DNA of 23,305 nucleotides from a virus: the UHGV virus genome UHGV-0105868. One strand, given 5' to 3'. Both the position numbers and the translations under genes were made by a program. Below are positions 5,049 to 23,305 of the stretch, one piece after another. Numbering within the stretch: the stretch's first letter is position 1; each line of letters opens with the position of its first letter. The notes beneath the pieces were generated by a model. It worked only from the letters and a program-made list of their open reading frames with translations. It did not search any database and had not been told where the DNA came from.

Positions 5049-5275
5049 TGGCTGATGCAATGGATCTCGTACAGCAGCGCGTTGAAGAAGAACGCCAGCG
5101 CCATATCCGTGCTGCCCGTGCCAAAACGCCGGGCGTGTCCCGCGTGCTTTGCGTTGAGTGTGAAGCGCCAATTCCGCCAGCACGCCGTCGTGCCATACCG
5201 GGTGTGCAGCTTTGCATTACCTGTCAGGAAATCGCAGAGCTGAAAGGCAAACATTACAACGGAGGTGCTGTATGA
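5048..5275 (+). CDS. DksA/TraR-family C4 zinc-finger protein
   Basis: 75 aa with CVECEAPIP…-(17 aa)-…CITC, the four-Cys zinc finger typical of phage TraR-like proteins. Confidence 0.8.
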   Translation: MADAMDLVQQRVEEERQRHIRAARAKTPGVSRVLCVECEAPIPPARRRAIPGVQLCITCQEIAELKGKHYNGGAV

Positions 5276-6129
5276 GCACCATCCTGAAATGGGCGGGAAA
5301 TAAAACCGCCATAATGTCCGAACTGAAAAAGCATCTTCCTGCTGGCCCGCGACTGGTTGAACCTTTCGCGGGTTCCTGTGCAGTGATGATGGAGACGGAT
5401 TACCCCAGCTATCTTGTTGCGGATATTAATCCTGATTTAATCAACCTCTATAAAAAGGTTGCTGCTGATTGTGAGGCGTTTATATCTCGTGCCAGAGCTT
5501 TATTTGAGGACGCAAACAGGGAGGTGACTTATTACAACATAAGGTAGGAGTTTAATTACTCAACTGAAATTACTGATTTCATGAAAGCGGTATATTTCCT
5601 GTATCTCAATCGTCACGGTTACCGTGGGTTATGTCGTTATAACAAGAGCGGGCATTTCAACATTCCATACGGTAATTATAAAAATCCGTATTTCCCTGAA
5701 AAAGAAATTCGCGCATTTGCAGAGAAAGCCCAGCGAGCAACGTTTATCTGCGCCAGCTTTGATGAAACGCTGGCGATGCTGCAGGTGGGGGATGTGGTGT
5801 ATTGCGATCCGCCTTATGACGGTACGTTTTCCGGTTATCACACTGACGGCTTCACTGAAGATGACCAGTATCACCTGGCATCCGTTCTTGAACATCGGTC
5901 ATCAGAAGGACATCCGGTCATTGTTTCTAATAGTGACACATCCCTGATCCGTTCGCTGTATCGCAATTTCACTCACCACTACATCAAGGCAAAACGCAGC
6001 ATTGGCGTGTCAGCTGGCGAGAGTAAATCTGCAACAGAAATCATCGCTGTTTCTGGGGCGCGCTGCTGGGTGGGATTTGATCCTTCGCGTGGCGTGGATA
6101 GTTCTGCCGTGTACGGAGTGCGTGCATGA
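5272..6129 (+). pseudogene. dam: Dam-type N6-adenine DNA methyltransferase interrupted by an in-frame amber codon (TAG at 5545..5547)
   Basis: N-terminal part has …ILKWAGNK… and EPFAGS (motif I). C-terminal part has …[15 protein letters not shown]… and DPPY (motif IV). The two track ORFs (ending 5547, starting 5581) are in the same frame. Reading through the TAG gives [27 protein letters not shown], which aligns with E. coli Dam (…YYQFREEFNKSQDPFRRAVLFLYLNR…) with the stop at a Glu position. GGAGG RBS before 5272. Confidence 0.8.
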
Positions 6130-9631: not shown

Positions 9632-10750
9632 ATGTATCTTTTCAAGTATTACCGTCCGGACTTCTTCTTCGAGAAAGCTATTCGTTATAATGAATTATAT
9701 TTTTCCGCTCCTGCGCAATTGAATGATCCTAATGATCTCAATATAGATTATCGTTTTGATAATAAATTGAAATTATGGGATATTTTATTGCGTTCTCCTT
9801 GCGATAAATCCTATGAAAATTTGAGTCACATATTAGATTTGAGTAATTTGAAGATACATAAGGGATTGAATCGTATTTTTAGAGGAAAAAAAATAAAAAG
9901 TAGCATTGAGTCATTAGATAGCCTGTTTGACTCACACGTTGATGAGATACGTAAGATCATAAATGATGGTTTACTACCTATCAATGTGATTAATTCCGCT
10001 ATTTATGGGAATATTCCTGAACCACGCCAATTTTTGGTCTCACTTTGCGAGAACAGTATCAAAGAAAGGTTGTATAGGAAAATAGTTCCTGCAGTATTCA
10101 GTGTGTCATTTTCAGCTAATGCGTTAGATCGTATGATGTGGGCGCATTATGCTGCAGGCTTTAGTGGTTGTGTTGTGATTTATGAAACGCAGGATTTTAA
10201 TATTAATGGCGTGCCACATCCTGGAATGAAGCTAAGAGAAAATTTATTTTCATCAGATAAATTTAATTTTCCAGTTAAGCAAATAAAATATAGTAATCAG
10301 GCTAAAGAGGTTTCACTTCTAGACCCAAGCGCAAATGTTGCAGAGTTATTTTTAACTAAAAATAGATTTTGGAGATATGAAGCTGAATATCGAATGTTTA
10401 TTCCAGAGGCAAATGCAGGAATAGGGAGTGAGCGGCATGTTCAAAGACGCGTAAATCGAAATATTGGACATATTTTTCATCATGATGCTAATGTTGTTAA
10501 AGGGATCATTTTTGGTCCTAGAATGTGTGAAATGAAAAAAGAAAGCATATGGAATTGTATCAAGTCAAATATGGAGAATTCAAATTCAACAATATGTTAT
10601 TTTTTTGACTCTGAGTTATCAGCATCAGGAAAGATTACTATTTCAAAAGGGCAACGAGCGGAAAAAATGAAAAATTTCCCTTTGTTCAGGAACAAGTTAA
10701 GTCAGACGGAAATGGCTAAAGTTTTGAAGGAAATTGGCATTACGAACTAA
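9632..10750 (+). CDS. AT-rich cargo protein (372 aa) with DUF2971-like N-terminal motif; candidate defence / abortive-infection gene
   Basis: Long ORF in a visibly AT-rich region, unlike the GC-richer phage backbone. N-terminus LFKYYRPDFFFEKAIRYNELYFSAPAQLNDPNDL and a later …SFSANALDRMMWAHYAAGFSGCVVIY… resemble the DUF2971 family signature as I remember it. Function unknown. Confidence 0.8.
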   Translation: MYLFKYYRPDFFFEKAIRYNELYFSAPAQLNDPNDLNIDYRFDNKLKLWDILLRSPCDKSYENLSHILDLSNLKIHKGLNRIFRGKKIKSSIESLDSLFDSHVDEIRKIINDGLLPINVINSAIYGNIPEPRQFLVSLCENSIKERLYRKIVPAVFSVSFSANALDRMMWAHYAAGFSGCVVIYETQDFNINGVPHPGMKLRENLFSSDKFNFPVKQIKYSNQAKEVSLLDPSANVAELFLTKNRFWRYEAEYRMFIPEANAGIGSERHVQRRVNRNIGHIFHHDANVVKGIIFGPRMCEMKKESIWNCIKSNMENSNSTICYFFDSELSASGKITISKGQRAEKMKNFPLFRNKLSQTEMAKVLKEIGITN

Positions 10751-11005: not shown

Positions 11006-12679
11006 ATGGAAAAATATCAAGATGAGGAATATGTAGACGATTTAACTGAGCGTGTTTTTCTCATTAAGCAACAACTGGAAGCGGGAAAACTAAAAATAGC
11101 TCATCATCTTGTAGAAGGTTTTATTGAAAGTTTTAAAAGAATAAGGCTGCGACAGGATGGTAAAGTTGACCCTTCTACTGTTGATGGCAGAATAAGGGCT
11201 ATGGGAGCAGCGGTTAATCACTTTTTAGAAAGAGAAGATATAAAAAACAAATACTCTATTCAGGACTTGCAAAGTTCTTACTTTAATATTCTTTTTAGTA
11301 ATTTTGGCGAGTTGTTTTATCTGATGAAAAAAACTAATGCAACGCCACATAAAGCATCAAGTTTTTTTTCTCAACAAGAAGAATATGTTAAGCAAATAGA
11401 AGGTGTTTTTCCTGAGTTATATAATCAGGTAATAGAGTTTTGGCAGGTAACATCCGATATTGGTGTAATACATTTGCAGGATGGTTCTCAGTTTAAAGCT
11501 AATTTTTCTGGTGACTTATTTCCTGCATTTGATGAGAATGCTGTCTCTATTGCAGGGTTGTATGTTGATACTATTTCACTTCCATGTCCTATATTAAGAG
11601 TCGGTCGTCTCTATGAAAAGTCAGATAAGGCTGAGTTTACAAGGATACTTCTGAAGCATGTCCTAACATGTATGACATATAAAGAAGTAGCGCTTGAAGA
11701 TATAGAGCCAGCAATAGTATTAATTTTGCCGGATAGAAGAGATTTTGAAACTGAGAGCAAAAAAAATTTGATGAGTTTTTGTGAGCCTTATGCTCTGACT
11801 CATGCGCAATATCTCTATGATCGACGGTTCGAAAGCTACGATGAATTTCAAGATTTTAGTTATTCGATGAATGATATTGATGCTGTTCTTAAAAATATTA
11901 AGAGAGCAGATAGACTTATTTTTGATACAGCATGGGGGCTAAATCCAAAAACTCAATTAGAAAAACTACTATCTGATAAAAAAAGAATATCACGTAATGT
12001 TGTTGGTGATCATGCTGGAATGGAGGTTTTCCTTTCCTGCATTGGAAGAATGCCGCAAGCCTATTCAGCAAAATGTAATGCACAAGAACTTGGTAGTACT
12101 CCATATATAAATGCAGACACATCTTGGCTCTATTATACTTGGCTTATTGAGTACGAATCTCTTAATTTTGATGTCAATGATATTGAACTAAAAAATTTGC
12201 ATATGGTTCATGCGTTATCTGCTGGTATGCAAGATGGTTTTTCATGGTTAGGAAATGTACCGGTCAATAAAATAATTGAGTTGAGACGTAACAAATTGAT
12301 GGAGGATGTAAGATCCATCTTATCAAATGGTGTTGACTCTTTAATCAATTCTTCGGCAGAGAGCTTTTCGAGGACAACGCAAAAAGTAATTGATAATGTA
12401 GACCGGGCTTTTATTGAACATCAAAGGATTCTTGCAAAAGCCCAAAAAGAGAAATTGAGAATTTACGGACTGGATGTCCTACCATGTATCGCAAATGGTG
12501 CTATAGCAATTGCTGGAGCGCTGACTGGCAATACTACTTTAGCGGCGTTAAGTGCAGGCCTTGGAGTAATAGGTATTCCGAGTATTAGTGATATCAAATC
12601 TAAATTTAAGCAGAGGCAAGAGAAGCTTGATGCCTATCAACGTTCTGTTACAGGTATACTCTTTAGCCATAAATCTTAA
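11006..12679 (+). CDS. AT-rich cargo protein (557 aa), unknown function, C-terminal hydrophobic Gly/Ala-rich segment; candidate defence / abortive-infection effector
   Basis: Long AT-rich ORF with a GGAG RBS. No motif recognised in the mostly soluble-looking body. Near the C-terminus is a hydrophobic stretch, …LPCIANGAIAIAGALTGNTTLAALSAGLGVIGIPSI…, long enough for one or two membrane helices. Confidence 0.8.
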   Translation: MEKYQDEEYVDDLTERVFLIKQQLEAGKLKIAHHLVEGFIESFKRIRLRQDGKVDPSTVDGRIRAMGAAVNHFLEREDIKNKYSIQDLQSSYFNILFSNFGELFYLMKKTNATPHKASSFFSQQEEYVKQIEGVFPELYNQVIEFWQVTSDIGVIHLQDGSQFKANFSGDLFPAFDENAVSIAGLYVDTISLPCPILRVGRLYEKSDKAEFTRILLKHVLTCMTYKEVALEDIEPAIVLILPDRRDFETESKKNLMSFCEPYALTHAQYLYDRRFESYDEFQDFSYSMNDIDAVLKNIKRADRLIFDTAWGLNPKTQLEKLLSDKKRISRNVVGDHAGMEVFLSCIGRMPQAYSAKCNAQELGSTPYINADTSWLYYTWLIEYESLNFDVNDIELKNLHMVHALSAGMQDGFSWLGNVPVNKIIELRRNKLMEDVRSILSNGVDSLINSSAESFSRTTQKVIDNVDRAFIEHQRILAKAQKEKLRIYGLDVLPCIANGAIAIAGALTGNTTLAALSAGLGVIGIPSISDIKSKFKQRQEKLDAYQRSVTGILFSHKS

Positions 12680-18117: not shown

Positions 18118-18495
18118 ATGAAAAAGAAATTAATCAGCGGACTGTTTCTGATGTTATGGATGGCGCTGTTAATCGCAGCAATGGTGTATCCGCAGGGGAT
18201 TTTTCCGGTACTGGCAGCGTCCGGCGTTTGGGTAGCCTGTTTGCTGACATGGGCGGTAATTCCGGTAGCACTGGCTGCGTTAATTAAGAATGGCCCGCTC
18301 TGGCAGGAGTTAAGGGCATCTTTGCTGAAGACAATTACCCGAAAAGAAAACGTATTTACCAGTTGGGTGATGCGATTGCTGATTGTTGTAAGTCTCGCCT
18401 GGACGGGGTGGGCTATTACCCTGGTCTTTTATCTACTGACCGTTATTGCCTTCTGGATCACCCGTAATCAGATGGCGCAACAGGTAGCAGCATGA
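18118..18495 (+). CDS. LysA-like lysis-timing membrane protein
   Basis: 125 aa from MKKKLISGLFLMLWMALLIAAMVY…, with about four hydrophobic helices. In the P2 lysA position. Confidence 0.65.
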   Translation: MKKKLISGLFLMLWMALLIAAMVYPQGIFPVLAASGVWVACLLTWAVIPVALAALIKNGPLWQELRASLLKTITRKENVFTSWVMRLLIVVSLAWTGWAITLVFYLLTVIAFWITRNQMAQQVAA

Positions 18496-18926
18496 ACCGG
18501 TTGCTGCTGGTTGTGCTGACGTTATTACTGGCGGCGCTGGGCTGGCAGACGTGGCGGCTGGCTGATGCCAGCCAGACCATCAGCATGCAGGCAGACGAGC
18601 TGCAGAGCAAAAGCCAGGCACTGGCAAAGAGCAATAGCCAGCTTATCAGCCTGTCCATTCTGACTGAAACCAATAACCGGGAGCAGGCGCGGCTCTATGC
18701 CGAAGCAGAACAGACCAGCACGCTGCTGAGACAACGACAACACCGGATCGAGGAACTGAAACGTGAGAACGAGGATTCGCAGCGCAGAAATCATCCCGTA
18801 TCGCGTGGAAGCCACCATTTTTCTCTATCCTGGACCGGAAGCAGAGCCGGTAATGGCAGCGGCAAAAGCCAGCCTGCAGAAGTACATCGCCAGTCAGACG
18901 CGTCTTGGTCGGGATATTCGCCGTAG
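18492..18926 (+). CDS. LysB-like i-spanin, apparently 3'-truncated and running out-of-frame into a gene J remnant
   Basis: N-terminal membrane anchor MNRLLLVVLTLLLAALGW followed by a coiled-coil-like Q/E/R-rich region. The last ~40 codons overlap the J-fragment frame and look non-native. No Rz1/LysC-like ORF seen. Confidence 0.5.
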   Translation: MNRLLLVVLTLLLAALGWQTWRLADASQTISMQADELQSKSQALAKSNSQLISLSILTETNNREQARLYAEAEQTSTLLRQRQHRIEELKRENEDSQRRNHPVSRGSHHFSLSWTGSRAGNGSGKSQPAEVHRQSDASWSGYSP

Positions 18927-19065
18927 CGCCATCTTTGCCGCCCTGCATGTTGAGGGGGTGCAGCGTGTGGAGCTGGCTTCTCCTCAGGCGGATGTGGTCC
19001 TGAACAAAACACAGGCGGCATCATGTACGCAGTGGAGCGTAACCAACGGAGGAACGGATGAATAG
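18799..19065 (+). pseudogene. J: Baseplate protein J, C-terminal fragment only
   Basis: About 90 aa in-frame with and immediately upstream of gene I, overlapping its start. Far shorter than an intact baseplate J (about 300 aa). R, S, V, W and the 5' part of J are absent between the lysis genes and this point. Identification is from gene order and size. Confidence 0.45.
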
Positions 19066-19663
19066 TCTGCTGCCACCGGGTTCAACACCACTGGAGCGCC
19101 GACTGGCGCAAACCTGCAGCGGGATTTCTGATCTGCAGGTGCCGCTTCGTGACTTGTGGAATCCGGCAACCTGTCCGGTCAGTTTCCTGCCTTATCTCGC
19201 CTGGGCGTTCTCTGTGGATCGCTGGGACGAGGGCTGGACAGAAAGCGTCAAGCGCCAGGTGGTGAAGGATGCTTTTTATATTCATCAGCATAAAGGGACC
19301 ACCAGTGCCGTGCGGCGGGTGGTGGAGCCGTTCGGATTCCTGATCCGCATTATTGAGTGGTGGCAGACCGGAGAAACACCGGGCACGTTTCGCCTGGATA
19401 TCGGCGTGCAGGACCAGGGCATCACTGAAGATACCTATCTGGAACTTGAGCGACTGATAAGCGATGCCAAACCATGTAGCCGCCACATGATCGGCATGTC
19501 CATCAATCTGCAGACCAGCGGCCCGCATTGGGTGGGAGCCGCCAGCTATCTTGGCGAAGAAATCACGATCTATCCGTATATCAACGAAACGATTATTTCC
19601 GGTGGCACCGCGCATGAAGGCGGGGCGGTCCATGTTATTGACACAATGAGAGTGAATCCATGA
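19058..19663 (+). CDS. I: Baseplate/tail protein I (P2 gpI-like)
   Basis: 201 aa; …LLPPGSTPLERRLAQTCSGI…LWNPATCPVSFLPYLAWAFSVDRWDEGW… closely resembles P2 gpI as I remember it. Confidence 0.85.
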   Translation: MNSLLPPGSTPLERRLAQTCSGISDLQVPLRDLWNPATCPVSFLPYLAWAFSVDRWDEGWTESVKRQVVKDAFYIHQHKGTTSAVRRVVEPFGFLIRIIEWWQTGETPGTFRLDIGVQDQGITEDTYLELERLISDAKPCSRHMIGMSINLQTSGPHWVGAASYLGEEITIYPYINETIISGGTAHEGGAVHVIDTMRVNP

Positions 19664-21144
19664 GCACAAAATTTTATACCCTGCTGACGGATATTGGCGC
19701 GGCGAAACTTGCCAGCGCCGCCGCGCTCGGTGTGCCGCTAAAAATTACCCATATGGCGGTGGGCGATGGCGGTGGAGTATTGCCAACGCCGGACGCAAAG
19801 CAGACGGCACTGGTAAATGAGAAACGCCGGGCTGCACTGAATATGCTTTATATCGACCCGCAGAACAGCAGCCAGATTATTGCCGAACAGGTGATCCCTG
19901 AAAACGAGGGCGGTTGGTGGATACGTGAAGTGGGCTTGTTTGATGAGTCCGGGGCATTGATTGCCGTGGGCAACTGCCCGGAAAGCTATAAGCCGCAACT
20001 GGCTGAAGGTAGCGGGCGCACTCAGACCGTGCGCATGGTGCTGATTACCAGCAGCACGGACAATATCACCCTGAAAATCGACCCTGCTGTAGTGCTGGCA
20101 ACCCGCAAGTATGTGGATGACAAGGCACTGGAGCTGAAGGTGTACGCGGATGATCAGATGGCAAAACATCTTGCCGCACCGGACCCGCATTCACAGTACG
20201 CGCCAAAAGCCAGCCCGACATTTACCGGAATCCCCAAAGCGCCAACGCCAGCGGCGGGGAATAATACCACGCAGGTTGCGACCACTGCGTTTGTACAGGC
20301 GGCACTGACGGCCCTTATTAATGGTGCGCCAGCCACGCTGGACACGCTGAAAGAAATAGCCGCAGCCATTAACAATGATCCGAATTTCAGTACCACCATT
20401 AACAATGCGCTGGCACTAAAAGCACCGTTGTCGAGTCCGGCACTCACCGGAACGCCAACAGCCCCCACGGCGGCGCAGTCGGTCAACAATACACAGATTG
20501 CCACTACGGCTTTTGTGAAATCGGCGATTGCAGGAATGGTGGGTTCTGCACCTGCTGCACTGGATACACTGAACGAACTGGCGGCGGCACTGGGGAATGA
20601 TCCGAACTTTGCCACGACAATGCTTAATGCGTTGGCAGGTAAACAACCGCTGGACAATACGCTTACCAATTTGAGTGGAAAGGATGTAGCTGGTCTTCTC
20701 ACATACCTTCAATTGGGAGAAGCGGCAAAACGGGATGTCGGAACCGGTAATAATCAACTCCCGGACATGTCCGCATTTGGTATGTCGCGAAACGGACAAA
20801 CTGCCTGGGATATTCTCCCAAATGGTATGATTCGACAGGCTGGCACTGTGACACTGACACCAGTTGGTAACTTCAACTCGCAGGTGCTTGGTGGGGTGAC
20901 GTACTACACCCATTACTACAGGGTTAATTTCCCCAGACAATTCCCAAATGCACAAATAGCAACGCTGGCAACACTAGCGAGTTACAGCTATTCGACCCAG
21001 GCAACAATGGCCGGAAAATCACTGGCAACGCATCGCGATACTGATTCTGGCACTGACGTATCAAGAACGCGATTCACTGTGGCGTATACGACACCCAATC
21101 TCGGCGAAACACCGACACTGCATTTTGAAGCAATAGGATACTAA
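19660..21144 (+). CDS. H: Tail fibre protein (P2 gpH-like) with a divergent C-terminal receptor-binding region
   Basis: 494 aa. The N-terminal two-thirds carry conserved fibre motifs (MAVGDGGG, ESYKPQLAEGSGRTQT, repeated …PTFTG.P.APT…NNTQ(V/I)ATTAFV…, LNELAAALGNDPNFATTM). The C-terminal ~150 aa are different and end …EAIGY. Confidence 0.85.
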   Translation: MSTKFYTLLTDIGAAKLASAAALGVPLKITHMAVGDGGGVLPTPDAKQTALVNEKRRAALNMLYIDPQNSSQIIAEQVIPENEGGWWIREVGLFDESGALIAVGNCPESYKPQLAEGSGRTQTVRMVLITSSTDNITLKIDPAVVLATRKYVDDKALELKVYADDQMAKHLAAPDPHSQYAPKASPTFTGIPKAPTPAAGNNTTQVATTAFVQAALTALINGAPATLDTLKEIAAAINNDPNFSTTINNALALKAPLSSPALTGTPTAPTAAQSVNNTQIATTAFVKSAIAGMVGSAPAALDTLNELAAALGNDPNFATTMLNALAGKQPLDNTLTNLSGKDVAGLLTYLQLGEAAKRDVGTGNNQLPDMSAFGMSRNGQTAWDILPNGMIRQAGTVTLTPVGNFNSQVLGGVTYYTHYYRVNFPRQFPNAQIATLATLASYSYSTQATMAGKSLATHRDTDSGTDVSRTRFTVAYTTPNLGETPTLHFEAIGY

Positions 21145-21146
21145 AT

Positions 21147-21380
21147 ATGGAGAATATCTATTTCAGCCCAACGACCGTTGGTTTTTATGTTTCTGAACAA
21201 GAGCGACCTGATGATGCGGTTGAAGTCTCGCCAGAGGTGGAGGCATTTTTGAGGGAGTGTGTTATCTGGGGAGCGGATACATTTAACGTAGAGCGAGATG
21301 CAGCAACGGTGACATATCCAACAGAACTGCTTGAATATGTCACCACCTACAACGCCCCCGTTAAATATCCTGCGGATTGA
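21147..21380 (+). CDS. Small ORF (77 aa) in the tail-fibre-assembly position; possibly a truncated Tfa N-terminal domain
   Basis: Immediately follows H. Lacks the conserved Tfa C-terminal motif. Ends where the convergent minus-strand Tfa gene ends. Confidence 0.35.
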   Translation: MENIYFSPTTVGFYVSEQERPDDAVEVSPEVEAFLRECVIWGADTFNVERDAATVTYPTELLEYVTTYNAPVKYPAD

Positions 21381-21771
21381 CAGGCCATACGGGTTTTGCT
21401 GTATCAACGCGCATCAGCAGGACCCGGTATTTTTTCCATTCAGATAACGCGGCGGTTTCTTCTGCCGTCGCGATTTCCGCATCAAAAGCATCCTGTCTCC
21501 AGACTATTTCCTTATCAGCCATAGAACGCAATACCGTTCTTTTCTGTTCAGCCTGAATAATCTGTTGTTCAGCGGAGAGTGGCGGGATATCAATCCACGC
21601 AGGATTACCATTTTTATCAGCCCCCAGCGTTTTGCCTTGTGGCGCTACGCCTGTGTAAATTGCCATTGTTTCATCATCAACATCAACGCCATTTTCAGGC
21701 CATGAACCGGCGCTGATATATACCTCTTTTAGTGCTTTCGGATAGAAAGAGCCTTTATAAAATTTATTCAT
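21361..21771 (-). CDS. Tail fibre assembly chaperone (Tfa), inverted relative to H
   Basis: 137 aa from MNKFYKGSFYPK…, with the C-terminal Tfa signature …EIATAEETAALSEWKKYRVLLMRVDTAKPVWPVNPQDI, which compares with lambda Tfa and P2 gpG C-termini. Encoded on the strand opposite to H. Confidence 0.7.
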   Translation of the reverse strand: MNKFYKGSFYPKALKEVYISAGSWPENGVDVDDETMAIYTGVAPQGKTLGADKNGNPAWIDIPPLSAEQQIIQAEQKRTVLRSMADKEIVWRQDAFDAEIATAEETAALSEWKKYRVLLMRVDTAKPVWPVNPQDI

Positions 21772-21773
21772 TC

Positions 21774-22200
21774 TTAATACCCCAGCGCGATAAAACAACA
21801 ATCTTCGGTGCCCTCTCCGGATGGCGACCAGTTCTGAATACTGATATGCGTTCTGCTGGCAATACGCACATTCATCGCGGCATTGTAGCCAGATGTTCCA
21901 CGGTTTCCGGTCGCAAATAAGCCTGCATAGGGAAAAGCAAATGGTAAGGCATATCCAGCATCAGCTCCCTTTTGTGTTGCCACCGTTCCCCACTGCAACA
22001 TAAGTTTCACCGGGTTTCCTGTCGTCGCAATGCATGGAATGTAGATGTAGCCATTCCCTGACATCATTGACCTGAAGCTGTCTAAATCCAGTAACTTCGA
22101 GGCATTATCTGCTCCAACATCTCGTGTTGCGGCGGTCCCTAACTGGAGCGCATTTCGGAAGGCTGATACATCAGAAATATCAGCTCCATTACCCGCCGTG
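21774..22200 (-). pseudogene. Alternative tail-fibre C-terminal (receptor-binding) domain fragment on the opposite strand
   Basis: The minus-strand ORF encodes …FFTAGNGADISDVSAFRNALQLGTAATRDVGADNASKLLDLDSF…FIALGY, which parallels the H C-terminal region (…YLQLGEAAKRDVGTGNNQLPDMSAF…EAIGY). There is no constant N-terminal part. The track ORF's first ~35 codons are antisense to the D fragment. Confidence 0.6.
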
Positions 22201-22232
22201 AAAAATCGTGGCACAAGACCACCGTCGGGGAA

Positions 22233-22946
22233 GTGGTGAAGGAAATAGCCGCGCGGCACAAGCTGAAGATGGCACTGGGTAAAGACCTGTCGGATAAGCC
22301 CGTTGAGCATATAGACCAGACTAATGAGAGTGACGGCAGTTTTCTGATGCGGCTGGCGCGACAGTACGGTGCCATCGCGTCGGTGAAAAATGGCAATCTG
22401 TTATTCATCCGGCAGGGGCAGGGCAAAAGCGCCACTGGTAAACCTCTGCCAGTGATCACTATCACACGCAAGGACGGCGACAGTCACCGATTTACCCTGG
22501 CAGATCGCGGAGCCTACACGGGCGTAATTGCCAGCTGGTTGCATACCCGCGAACCTGCGAAGAAAGAAAGCACCACGGTGAAGCGTAAGCGCAGAACTAA
22601 GAAGCAGAAGAAAGAGCCGGAAGCGAAGCAGGGCGATTACCTGGTGGGTACGGATGAAAACGTGCTGGTACTTAATCGCACTTATGCCAACCGGAGCAAC
22701 GCTGAACGGGCAGCGAAAATGCAGTGGGAACGCCTGCAACGCGGCGTTGCGTCATTCTCGCTACAACTGGCGGAAGGGCGGGCAGATCTTTACACGGAAA
22801 TGCCAGTGAAAGTTAGTGGCTTTAAACAACCGATAGATGATGCGGAATGGACCATTACGACTCTGACTCATACCGTCAGCCCGGATAATGGTTTTACGAC
22901 CAGTCTGGAGCTTGAAGTGAGGATTGATGATTTCGAAATGGAATGA
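22233..22946 (+). pseudogene. D: Tail protein D fragment (C-terminal ~235 aa of P2 gpD-like); 5' half and upstream sheath/tube/tape-measure genes absent
   Basis: …AARHKLKMALGKDLS…HIDQTNESDGSFLMRLARQYGAIASVKNGNLLFIRQGQGKS…VKVSGFKQPIDDAEWTITTLTHTVSPDNGFTTSLELEV… resembles the C-terminal half of P2 gpD as I remember it. It begins about 30 bp from the inverted fibre fragment. FI, FII, E, T and U are not in the window. Confidence 0.65.
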
Positions 22947-23036
22947 TTCTTCGCAATGGAGAACTTTTAAGTTTGCAAAATGGAATAATGCGGTATCATT
23001 ATTGTGAATTTAGCAAAAATGGGGAGAACTCGAAAA

Positions 23037-23255
23037 ATGATGATTTGCCCACTGTGTGGAAGTGCCGCCCATACTCGCAGCAGTTTTCAGGTATCTTCAT
23101 TGACCAAAGAACGTTACAACCAGTGCCAGAACATTAACTGCAGCCATACTTTTGTTACCCATGAAACTTTTGTTCGTTCGATTGCAACGCCAAAAGAGTC
23201 AAATCCGGTTCAGCCGCATCCAATGAAATCAGGACAGGTGGAGCTCTCTCTTTGA
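23037..23255 (+). CDS. ogr: Ogr/Delta-type zinc-finger late-gene transcription activator
   Basis: 72 aa (the same length as P2 Ogr) from MMICPLCGSAAHTRSSF…KERYNQCQNINCSHTFVTHE…PHP…, matching the Ogr pattern CPLC…ERYHQCQNVNCS…. Immediately followed by attR. Confidence 0.85.
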   Translation: MMICPLCGSAAHTRSSFQVSSLTKERYNQCQNINCSHTFVTHETFVRSIATPKESNPVQPHPMKSGQVELSL

Positions 23256-23277
23256 CGCTGCCGCCATTTTGTCGCCA
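23256..23277. repeat. attR core (cgctgccgccaTtttgtcgcca)
   Basis: Imperfect direct repeat of 709..730, placed right after ogr as in P2-type prophages. Confidence 0.6.
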
Positions 23278-23305
23278 TCGTTAAAAAACAGTGCTTCTAA
23301 CATCA

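Follow-up and report, generated by a model that had tools for sequence, protein, structure and literature searches.

The right end of the window, by which we mean the whole 23,305-nucleotide stretch analyzed here (UHGV virus genome UHGV-0105868), is very probably what a deletion has left of an invertible host-range segment of the Pin/Gin type (Din family), carried by a P2-like prophage. An earlier note on this DNA, made from the letters alone, had read the layout as a possible remnant of a Gin/Cin/Hin-type invertible segment, and near-identical relatives bear this out, as they possess the invertase, both crossover sites and both orientations of the segment. The complete element has a serine invertase gene immediately right of the segment, and the enzyme would recombine two inverted 26-bp sites, one located inside the tail-fibre gene H and the other between the alternative fibre tip Sv' and the invertase gene. 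A flip of about 1.5 kb would thereby join the constant part of H, Sc, either to the tip Sv (then orf77) or to the tip Sv' (then tfa). An illegitimate deletion of 6,911 bp has taken the right site and the invertase, disabling the switch and leaving Sv and orf77 frozen in the expressed position, with Sv' and tfa as silent, pseudogene-like passengers. The architecture, the sites, the two orientations in relatives and the deletion end-points were demonstrated by the sequence comparisons described below. A suspicious convergent fibre cassette can thus be understood as a Pin-type host-range switch disabled by deletion, that is, as a system of a known kind.

Prophage context

The window represents a P2-like prophage of E. 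coli with P2 gene order and P2 hallmark proteins: int, C, A, Q, P, N, M, L, X, the lysis genes, I, H, D and ogr follow in P2 order, and the assignment is backed by Pfam matches to Phage_tail_fib, Phage_GPD and Ogr_Delta. It is defective, with O, R, S, V, W, FI, FII, E, T and U absent and P, N, J, D and lysB truncated. Its closest intact relative is a prophage of E. coli p10A, sited between rcdA and ybjL; this locus is called L001, and L001 coordinates refer to the p10A sequence. Compared over the whole window, the two prophages share four colinear blocks with three SNPs in total, and three deletions (delA, delB and delC) lie between the blocks. Window positions 18778-23305 showed no mismatch to p10A, and a megablast search of 5,426 complete E. 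coli genomes gave matches to positions 20600-22195 of up to 99.9% identity.

The gene order in p10A is H (Sc + Sv), orf77 (+), tfa (-), Sv' (-), a recombinase (+) annotated as 'recombinase family protein', FI, FII, E, E', T, U, D and ogr. The comparison with intact relatives carrying a serine invertase that the earlier note had recommended therefore delivered what it had anticipated, a Pin/Gin-type gene and, beyond it, FI, FII, E, T, U and D. The features of the corresponding part of the window are collected in Table 1.

Table 1. Features at the right end of the window (positions in the window; strand and evidence as given)
Feature	Position	Strand	Evidence
H, tail-fibre gene, 494 aa	19660-21144	+	ORF; Pfam; 'phage tail protein' in p10A annotation
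Left crossover site, 26-bp Din-type, sole survivor	20696-20721		consensus match; flipped relatives
Sv, variable C-terminal tip, expressed orientation, in frame with Sc	20709-21144	+	Gp53-like_C; flipped relatives
orf77, 77 aa	21147-21380	+	ORF; WP_001340317.1 'hypothetical protein' in relatives; no Pfam match
tfa, tail-fibre assembly protein, 136 aa	21361-21771	-	Caudo_TAP; phrog_188; annotation in relatives
Sv' remnant, alternative tip without its first 17 codons	21774-22191	-	Gp53-like_C; identity to L001 10175-10592
delC junction, 6,911-bp deletion	22190-22191		block boundaries and junction sequences
D remnant, codons about 116-366 of late control/tail gene D	22192-22946	+	Phage_GPD; L001 17504-18258
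ogr, late-gene activator, intact	23037-23255	+	Ogr_Delta E = 7e-22; L001 18349-18567 in p10A

The fibre cassette

H consists of the constant part Sc, which extends up to the crossover site, and the variable tip Sv. Its protein matches Phage_tail_fib at 1-150 (E = 4e-65) and Gp53-like_C at 386-494 (E = 1e-5). The earlier note had described a minus-strand tfa gene convergent with H and, behind it, a second fibre C-terminal domain, and both are present. The tfa product belongs to the Pfam family Caudo_TAP (PF02413; E = 1e-30, 107 bits against a gathering cut-off of 22.1) and matches phrog_188 with E = 1e-41, in line with its annotation as 'tail fiber assembly protein' in relatives; the second domain, Sv', matches Gp53-like_C with E = 8e-9. 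The motif LQLG.AA.RDVG and the GY ends that had been noticed in both tips were recovered as well: H terminates in ...EAIGY and Sv' in ...IALGY, and BLASTP returned a single local match between Sv and Sv' of 41 residues (49% identity, E = 3e-6) that spans DV..LQLG.AA.RDVG. Judging from this alignment the two tips are homologous, and a lack of homology between the C-terminal regions, which the note had named as an argument against its own reading, was not what we found.

In the window, Sv' has neither a start codon of its own nor an Sc part to fuse to. The same Sv' sequence is joined to Sc in E. coli strain 1283, where the product is a 505-aa H protein. tfa is the partner of Sv' and is silent in the orientation of the window. 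H, orf77 and tfa are intact reading frames with no mismatches to functional relatives.

In two other genomes, H19 (NZ_AP027829.1) and H29 (NZ_CP195973.1), the cassette is interrupted by IS2, and the same fibre cassette is interrupted by InsA/transposase B in phage phi458 (OP434518.1). The switch can thus also decay through IS insertion.

Crossover sites

The earlier note had seen no clear crossover repeats and had proposed a search for sites in 20650-20750 and 22150-22250. The former stretch does hold a site, which reads TTCTCACATACC TT CAATTGGGAGAA, with the central TT at 20708-20709, and overlies the H codons LLTYLQLGE; the right site was lost to delC. It is thus correct that the window has no pair of crossover repeats, although one site survives. 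A scan with the consensus TTCNNNNAAACCRASGTWTNNGA, allowing up to 3 mismatches, returned this site as the one match in the whole window, and the same scan of the p10A locus returned exactly two sites in inverted orientation, at L001 9097-9122 (core TT) and 10631-10656 (core AA). The right site of p10A, which lies between Sv' and the invertase gene, reads TTCGCCCAAACC AA CGTTTAAGAAAA (= TTCGCCCAAACCAACGTTTAAGAAAA). Compared with the pix site sequences (PMC3241671, Table 3), it is identical to pixR at 24 of 26 positions, and the left site, read on the opposite strand, is identical to pixL and to pixR at 19 of 26 positions each.

Taken alone, the left site is not statistically compelling: it deviates from the family consensus at 3 positions, and at least one match of this quality was obtained in 25 of 100 shuffled versions of the window. 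Because it matches the consensus poorly, its identification rests on the flipped relatives described below and not on the motif, and the exchange point in these relatives coincides exactly with it. A generic inverted-repeat search of window positions 19600-22400 and of the intact relative gave no convincing long repeats, since the two sites are too short and, with 17 of 26 positions identical, too divergent for such a tool. They were first spotted by eye and then confirmed via the flipped genomes.

The LQLG motif had also been proposed as the junction of the invertible part. This holds for H, where the crossover site overlies it, but not for Sv', where the true right site was situated about 30 codons upstream and has been deleted. 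The DNA that encodes the motif in Sv' (22135-22160) agrees with the right site, in direct reading, at only 10 of 26 positions and has AG instead of AA at its core. By this comparison it is not a crossover site and would lie about 30 codons inside the segment.

Inversion in intact relatives

The p10A recombinase, encoded directly beyond Sv' (L001 10712-11278), is a protein of 188 aa with 86% identity to PinE of e14 and 76% identity to Mu Gin. In further comparisons it matched the Gin structure 3uj3 with E = 3e-93 and phrog_125 'DNA invertase' with E = 2e-100. The window has no such gene, as the earlier note had stated; its sole recombinase is a tyrosine integrase, according to the colinearity with the annotated p10A prophage.

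A predicted inverted sequence was built by exchange between the two central dinucleotides, and this inversion yields an in-frame H-Sv' fusion (...LLTYLGLGETINKAS...IALGY). Nineteen complete E. coli genomes contain the 800-nt predicted inverted junction at full length within one alignment (best identity 99.5%), and 37 contain the junction of the window type. In strain 1283 the whole segment is flipped, with the gene for the 505-aa H protein and tfa on the plus strand, orf77 and Sv on the minus strand, and then the recombinase gene; both of its hybrid sites are those predicted for exchange at the central TT/AA. The occurrence of both orientations with reciprocal hybrid sites establishes the segment as a working Pin/Gin-type switch in the intact relatives. 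Host-range switching is presumably the function of the intact segment. A strict regular expression for the Fis consensus gave no match in L001 10640-11000, the 5' region of the invertase gene, but the test is a crude and uninformative one, and the switch of the relatives would be expected to depend on Fis and an enhancer. In the window this whole region has been lost with the invertase gene.

These observations also bear on the possibility that the two tips are a fixed, non-invertible pair of fibre genes whose convergent layout is coincidental. The window taken by itself, devoid of an invertase and of a pair of inverted repeats, would fit such an arrangement, and the earlier note had regarded its presence in intact relatives as contrary to an invertible segment. 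However, near-identical relatives have the invertase and both sites, their genomes divide by orientation (37 versus 19) with exact reciprocal hybrid sites, and Sv' has neither a start codon nor an N-terminal fibre part, so that we assign to a fixed pair practically no probability. Considering the features that define the Din family, an invertase gene beside the segment is found in the relatives and not in the window; two inverted 26-bp sites with the same central dinucleotide are found in p10A, compared with one site in the window; and both orientations occur among intact relatives, compared with a single one in the lineage of the window (the window and the assembly GCA_053944015.1). The layout of a constant part and two convergent tips with their partners is present in the window, but its Sv' lacks the codons needed for the alternative in-frame fusion, which is seen in the relatives. 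The window is accordingly the remnant of a Din-family member, lacking the defining invertase, second site and second orientation.

The deletion at the right end

delC has an exact microhomology of 2 nt (TA) at its junction, inside an imperfect TAGCCG/TACCCG match. Lost with it are codons 1-17 of Sv', the intergenic region with the right site, the gene for the invertase, the block FI-FII-E-E'-T-U and roughly the first 115 codons of D. The earlier note had surmised that a deletion took the invertase together with FI/FII/E/T/U, and exactly that stretch is missing in the comparison with p10A. The cassette also adjoins a 5'-truncated D gene, as had been described: the Phage_GPD match covers profile positions 93-302 of 305 only, and the remnant, which is 100% identical to its p10A counterpart, has lost its start codon and promoter. 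The boundary between the cassette and D had been misplaced at 22232/22233, since 22233 is where the D remnant has its first start codon, a GTG, and the true junction lies at 22190/22191. Two open reading frames at this place, one of 178 aa on the minus strand (21774-22310) that runs from antisense D into Sv' and one of 237 aa (22233-22946), are artefacts of the deletion junction, and they call for caution in annotation.

An origin of delC by action of the invertase was considered and rejected, because there are 38 nt between the right site and the left break-point, which is outside the site, and because the junction has only the TA microhomology; from its junction sequence it looks like ordinary illegitimate recombination. 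The reverse event, in which the p10A type arose by insertion into an ancestor of the window type, is implausible, because the window is devoid of essential tail genes and of the 5' end of D.

The delC junction is rare in databases. In the 5,426 complete E. coli genomes searched by megablast no record crosses position 22195, an exact search among GTDB representative genomes gave no match, and a look-up of the truncated-D ORF returned no record. The junction-spanning minus-strand ORF is known, however, being recorded in GCA_053944015.1 (392-kb contig DBLDAX010000001.1), which is 100% identical to window positions 20598-23305, delC junction included. The locus of that assembly (11480-12420) has an extra deletion that fuses the antisense portal gene to H at about window position 20598 and leaves of H the last 100 nt or so of Sc, the orphan crossover site and Sv.

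This rarity, together with the unusual presence of three clean deletions in an otherwise near-identical prophage, could suggest that the Sv'-D junction and the other two are assembly artefacts or that the contig is chimeric. We consider this very unlikely, as the same junction is present in a separate assembly that differs elsewhere, by the portal-to-H deletion and by an intact dam gene, and as the break-points have no repeats that could collapse, with a microhomology of only 2 nt. Because a separate assembly from a sister lineage shares it, delC is real. Since the two lineages diverged afterwards, it may be the oldest of the events, and the portal-to-H deletion of the sister may either be separate from delA and delB or have removed them.

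State of the remnant

As only the left site remains, the segment is fixed in the orientation that places Sv and orf77 in the expressed position, and as Sv' has lost its first 17 codons, the alternative H-Sv' fusion is impossible in the window. From these missing parts, and from two assemblies in the same orientation, inversion is not expected to take place in the lineage of the window. One could envisage that the remnant is still switched by a Pin-type invertase acting in trans, provided by another prophage such as e14, Rac or Qin, on the orphan left site and a cryptic second site in the window or elsewhere in the chromosome. The similarity of the lost invertase to PinE (86%) and of the sites to pix sites speaks for this, and PinQ has been reported to act in trans on the e14 P segment (PMC12529663). 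Nonetheless, no second site with up to 3 mismatches was found in the window, the LQLG-encoding DNA of Sv' is a poor substitute (10/26, core AG), the loss of 17 codons precludes a precise in-frame fusion, and an exchange with a remote site would cause large chromosomal inversions or deletions. The chance of such switching in trans is therefore very small.

The decay of the prophage is not confined to its right end. delA (1,569 bp, junction 15341/15342, CA microhomology) removed the 5' end of the terminase gene P, the P-O intergenic region, the scaffold gene O and the 5' end of the capsid gene N. delB (2,719 bp, junction 18776/18777, TT microhomology) took lysC, R, S, V and W along with the 3' end of lysB and most of J, and gave rise to a lysB'-'J junction ORF at 18492-18926. 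Furthermore, a C-to-T change at 5545 introduces a premature stop (Q92*) into the gene for the prophage DNA adenine methylase Dam (5272-6129), which is intact in p10A and in GCA_053944015.1. By its gene content the prophage is decaying, and no tail, capsid scaffold or baseplate could be made from it. P2 has four Ogr-dependent late promoters. According to the gene map, delA, delB and delC would cover their usual places (P_P/P_O, P_V and P_F), with ogr intact, which could be due to chance or to selection against late-gene expression. In the remnant, H probably lacks a promoter and would not be expressed.

Two cargo genes lie at 9632-10750 and 11006-12679, between a dinI-like gene and the portal gene Q, a P2 accessory hotspot. 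One of the proteins is a 372-aa DUF2971 protein that matches the PADLOC candidate defence family PDC-S31 (E = 3e-23), and the other, of 557 aa, has a weak DitB match (E = 3e-10).

The presumed loss of the late-promoter places is also relevant to the idea that the frozen H-Sv/orf77 module is kept for a use by the host, for instance the blocking of a surface receptor against other phages. A precedent exists in StfE2 of e14, reported as a surface-receptor-blocking protein against other phages (PMC12529663), and the intact frames of H, orf77 and tfa, with no mismatches to functional relatives, would agree with it. On the other hand, the very high identity to intact prophages indicates that the deletions are recent, and the intact frames are therefore uninformative on selection; besides, the sister assembly GCA_053944015.1 is already devoid of most of H, and from the gene map the usual places of all four late promoters fall within the three deletions. 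We hold retention for the host to be very improbable, and the remnant is best regarded as a disabled switch.

The orf77 family

The gene directly 3' of Sv, orf77, was missing from the earlier description of the region. It inverts together with Sv and travels with it in both p10A and strain 1283. Its family, with members of 77-80 aa in E. coli, Citrobacter, Enterobacter and Phytobacter, extends down to 59% identity and has 21 invariant positions. Searches of Pfam gave no match; the N-terminal 31 aa weakly resemble the Tfa family phrog_188 (E = 9e-5). An AlphaFold (AF2) model with a pLDDT of 91 was used for fold searches, which gave nothing with E < 1 in the PDB and, in BFVD, a weak best match (E = 0.057), which is a 'tail fiber assembly protein' of 60 aa from Pantoea phage LIMEzero. 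The C-terminus of one homologue, P0028, reads ...PDIDWPEKPTK, which we take to resemble the extreme C-terminus typical of Tfa proteins.

A freshly truncated Tfa was considered as an explanation for orf77 and rejected, because the length of 77-80 aa is kept down to 59% identity across genera, which marks it as a real gene, and there is no similarity to the neighbouring Tfa. The family may go back to a Tfa that lost its conserved middle part, and orf77 may plausibly serve the Sv tip as an accessory protein or chaperone. Bolder readings, in which orf77 stands for a hitherto undescribed, minimal type of tail-fibre partner or chaperone that takes the place of a Caudo_TAP protein beside a gp53-like tip, or in which the host uses the frozen H-Sv/orf77 as a receptor-masking anti-phage factor, find no support in the data and appear very improbable to us. 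As a conserved and uncharacterized partner of one fibre tip, orf77 is the part of the cassette with some wider interest.

Comparison with known invertible segments

The window provides an example, resolved to the base pair, of an invertible fibre switch becoming locked, and its relation to complete systems can be followed in several elements. The P segment of e14 in E. coli K-12 has the same plan, with a constant part, a tip and tfa, a convergent tfa and tip, and an invertase, and it still inverts (PMC4272514). The invertase of the relatives and both of their sites resemble those of e14 (86% identity to PinE; right site 24/26 to pixR, left site 19/26 to pixL and pixR). However, e14 is a lambdoid remnant that has retained the invertase and both sites, whereas the window is P2-like and is missing the invertase and one of the sites; neither the tips nor the chaperones of the two are related (Tfa versus TfaP, E = 15).

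The G segment of Mu is likewise identical in plan, as S (Sc + Sv) and U are followed by U' and S'v on the opposite strand and by gin, and the invertase of the relatives resembles Gin in sequence (76% identity) and in its match to structure 3uj3 (E = 3e-93). In contrast, the gix core is GA, compared with AA/TT in the window and its relatives; Mu possesses two Caudo_TAP chaperones of full length, but in the present cassette the partner of one tip is a 77-aa protein without a Pfam domain; and the G segment is complete, unlike the system of the window.

Within the P2-like phages, Escherichia phage Cartapus carries I, H, tfa, a convergent tfa and tip, a DNA invertase and FI at the same position of the genome. 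Its constant H part and invertase are about 95% identical in DNA, whereas the variable cassettes differ (39% of the query covered). Unlike Cartapus, the window has neither invertase nor right site, and the tail genes that should come next are missing. The P2-like prophages (Peduoviridae) of enteropathogenic E. coli (EPEC) E2348/69 have invertible fibre cassettes too, whose inversion was shown by sequencing (PMC4272514).
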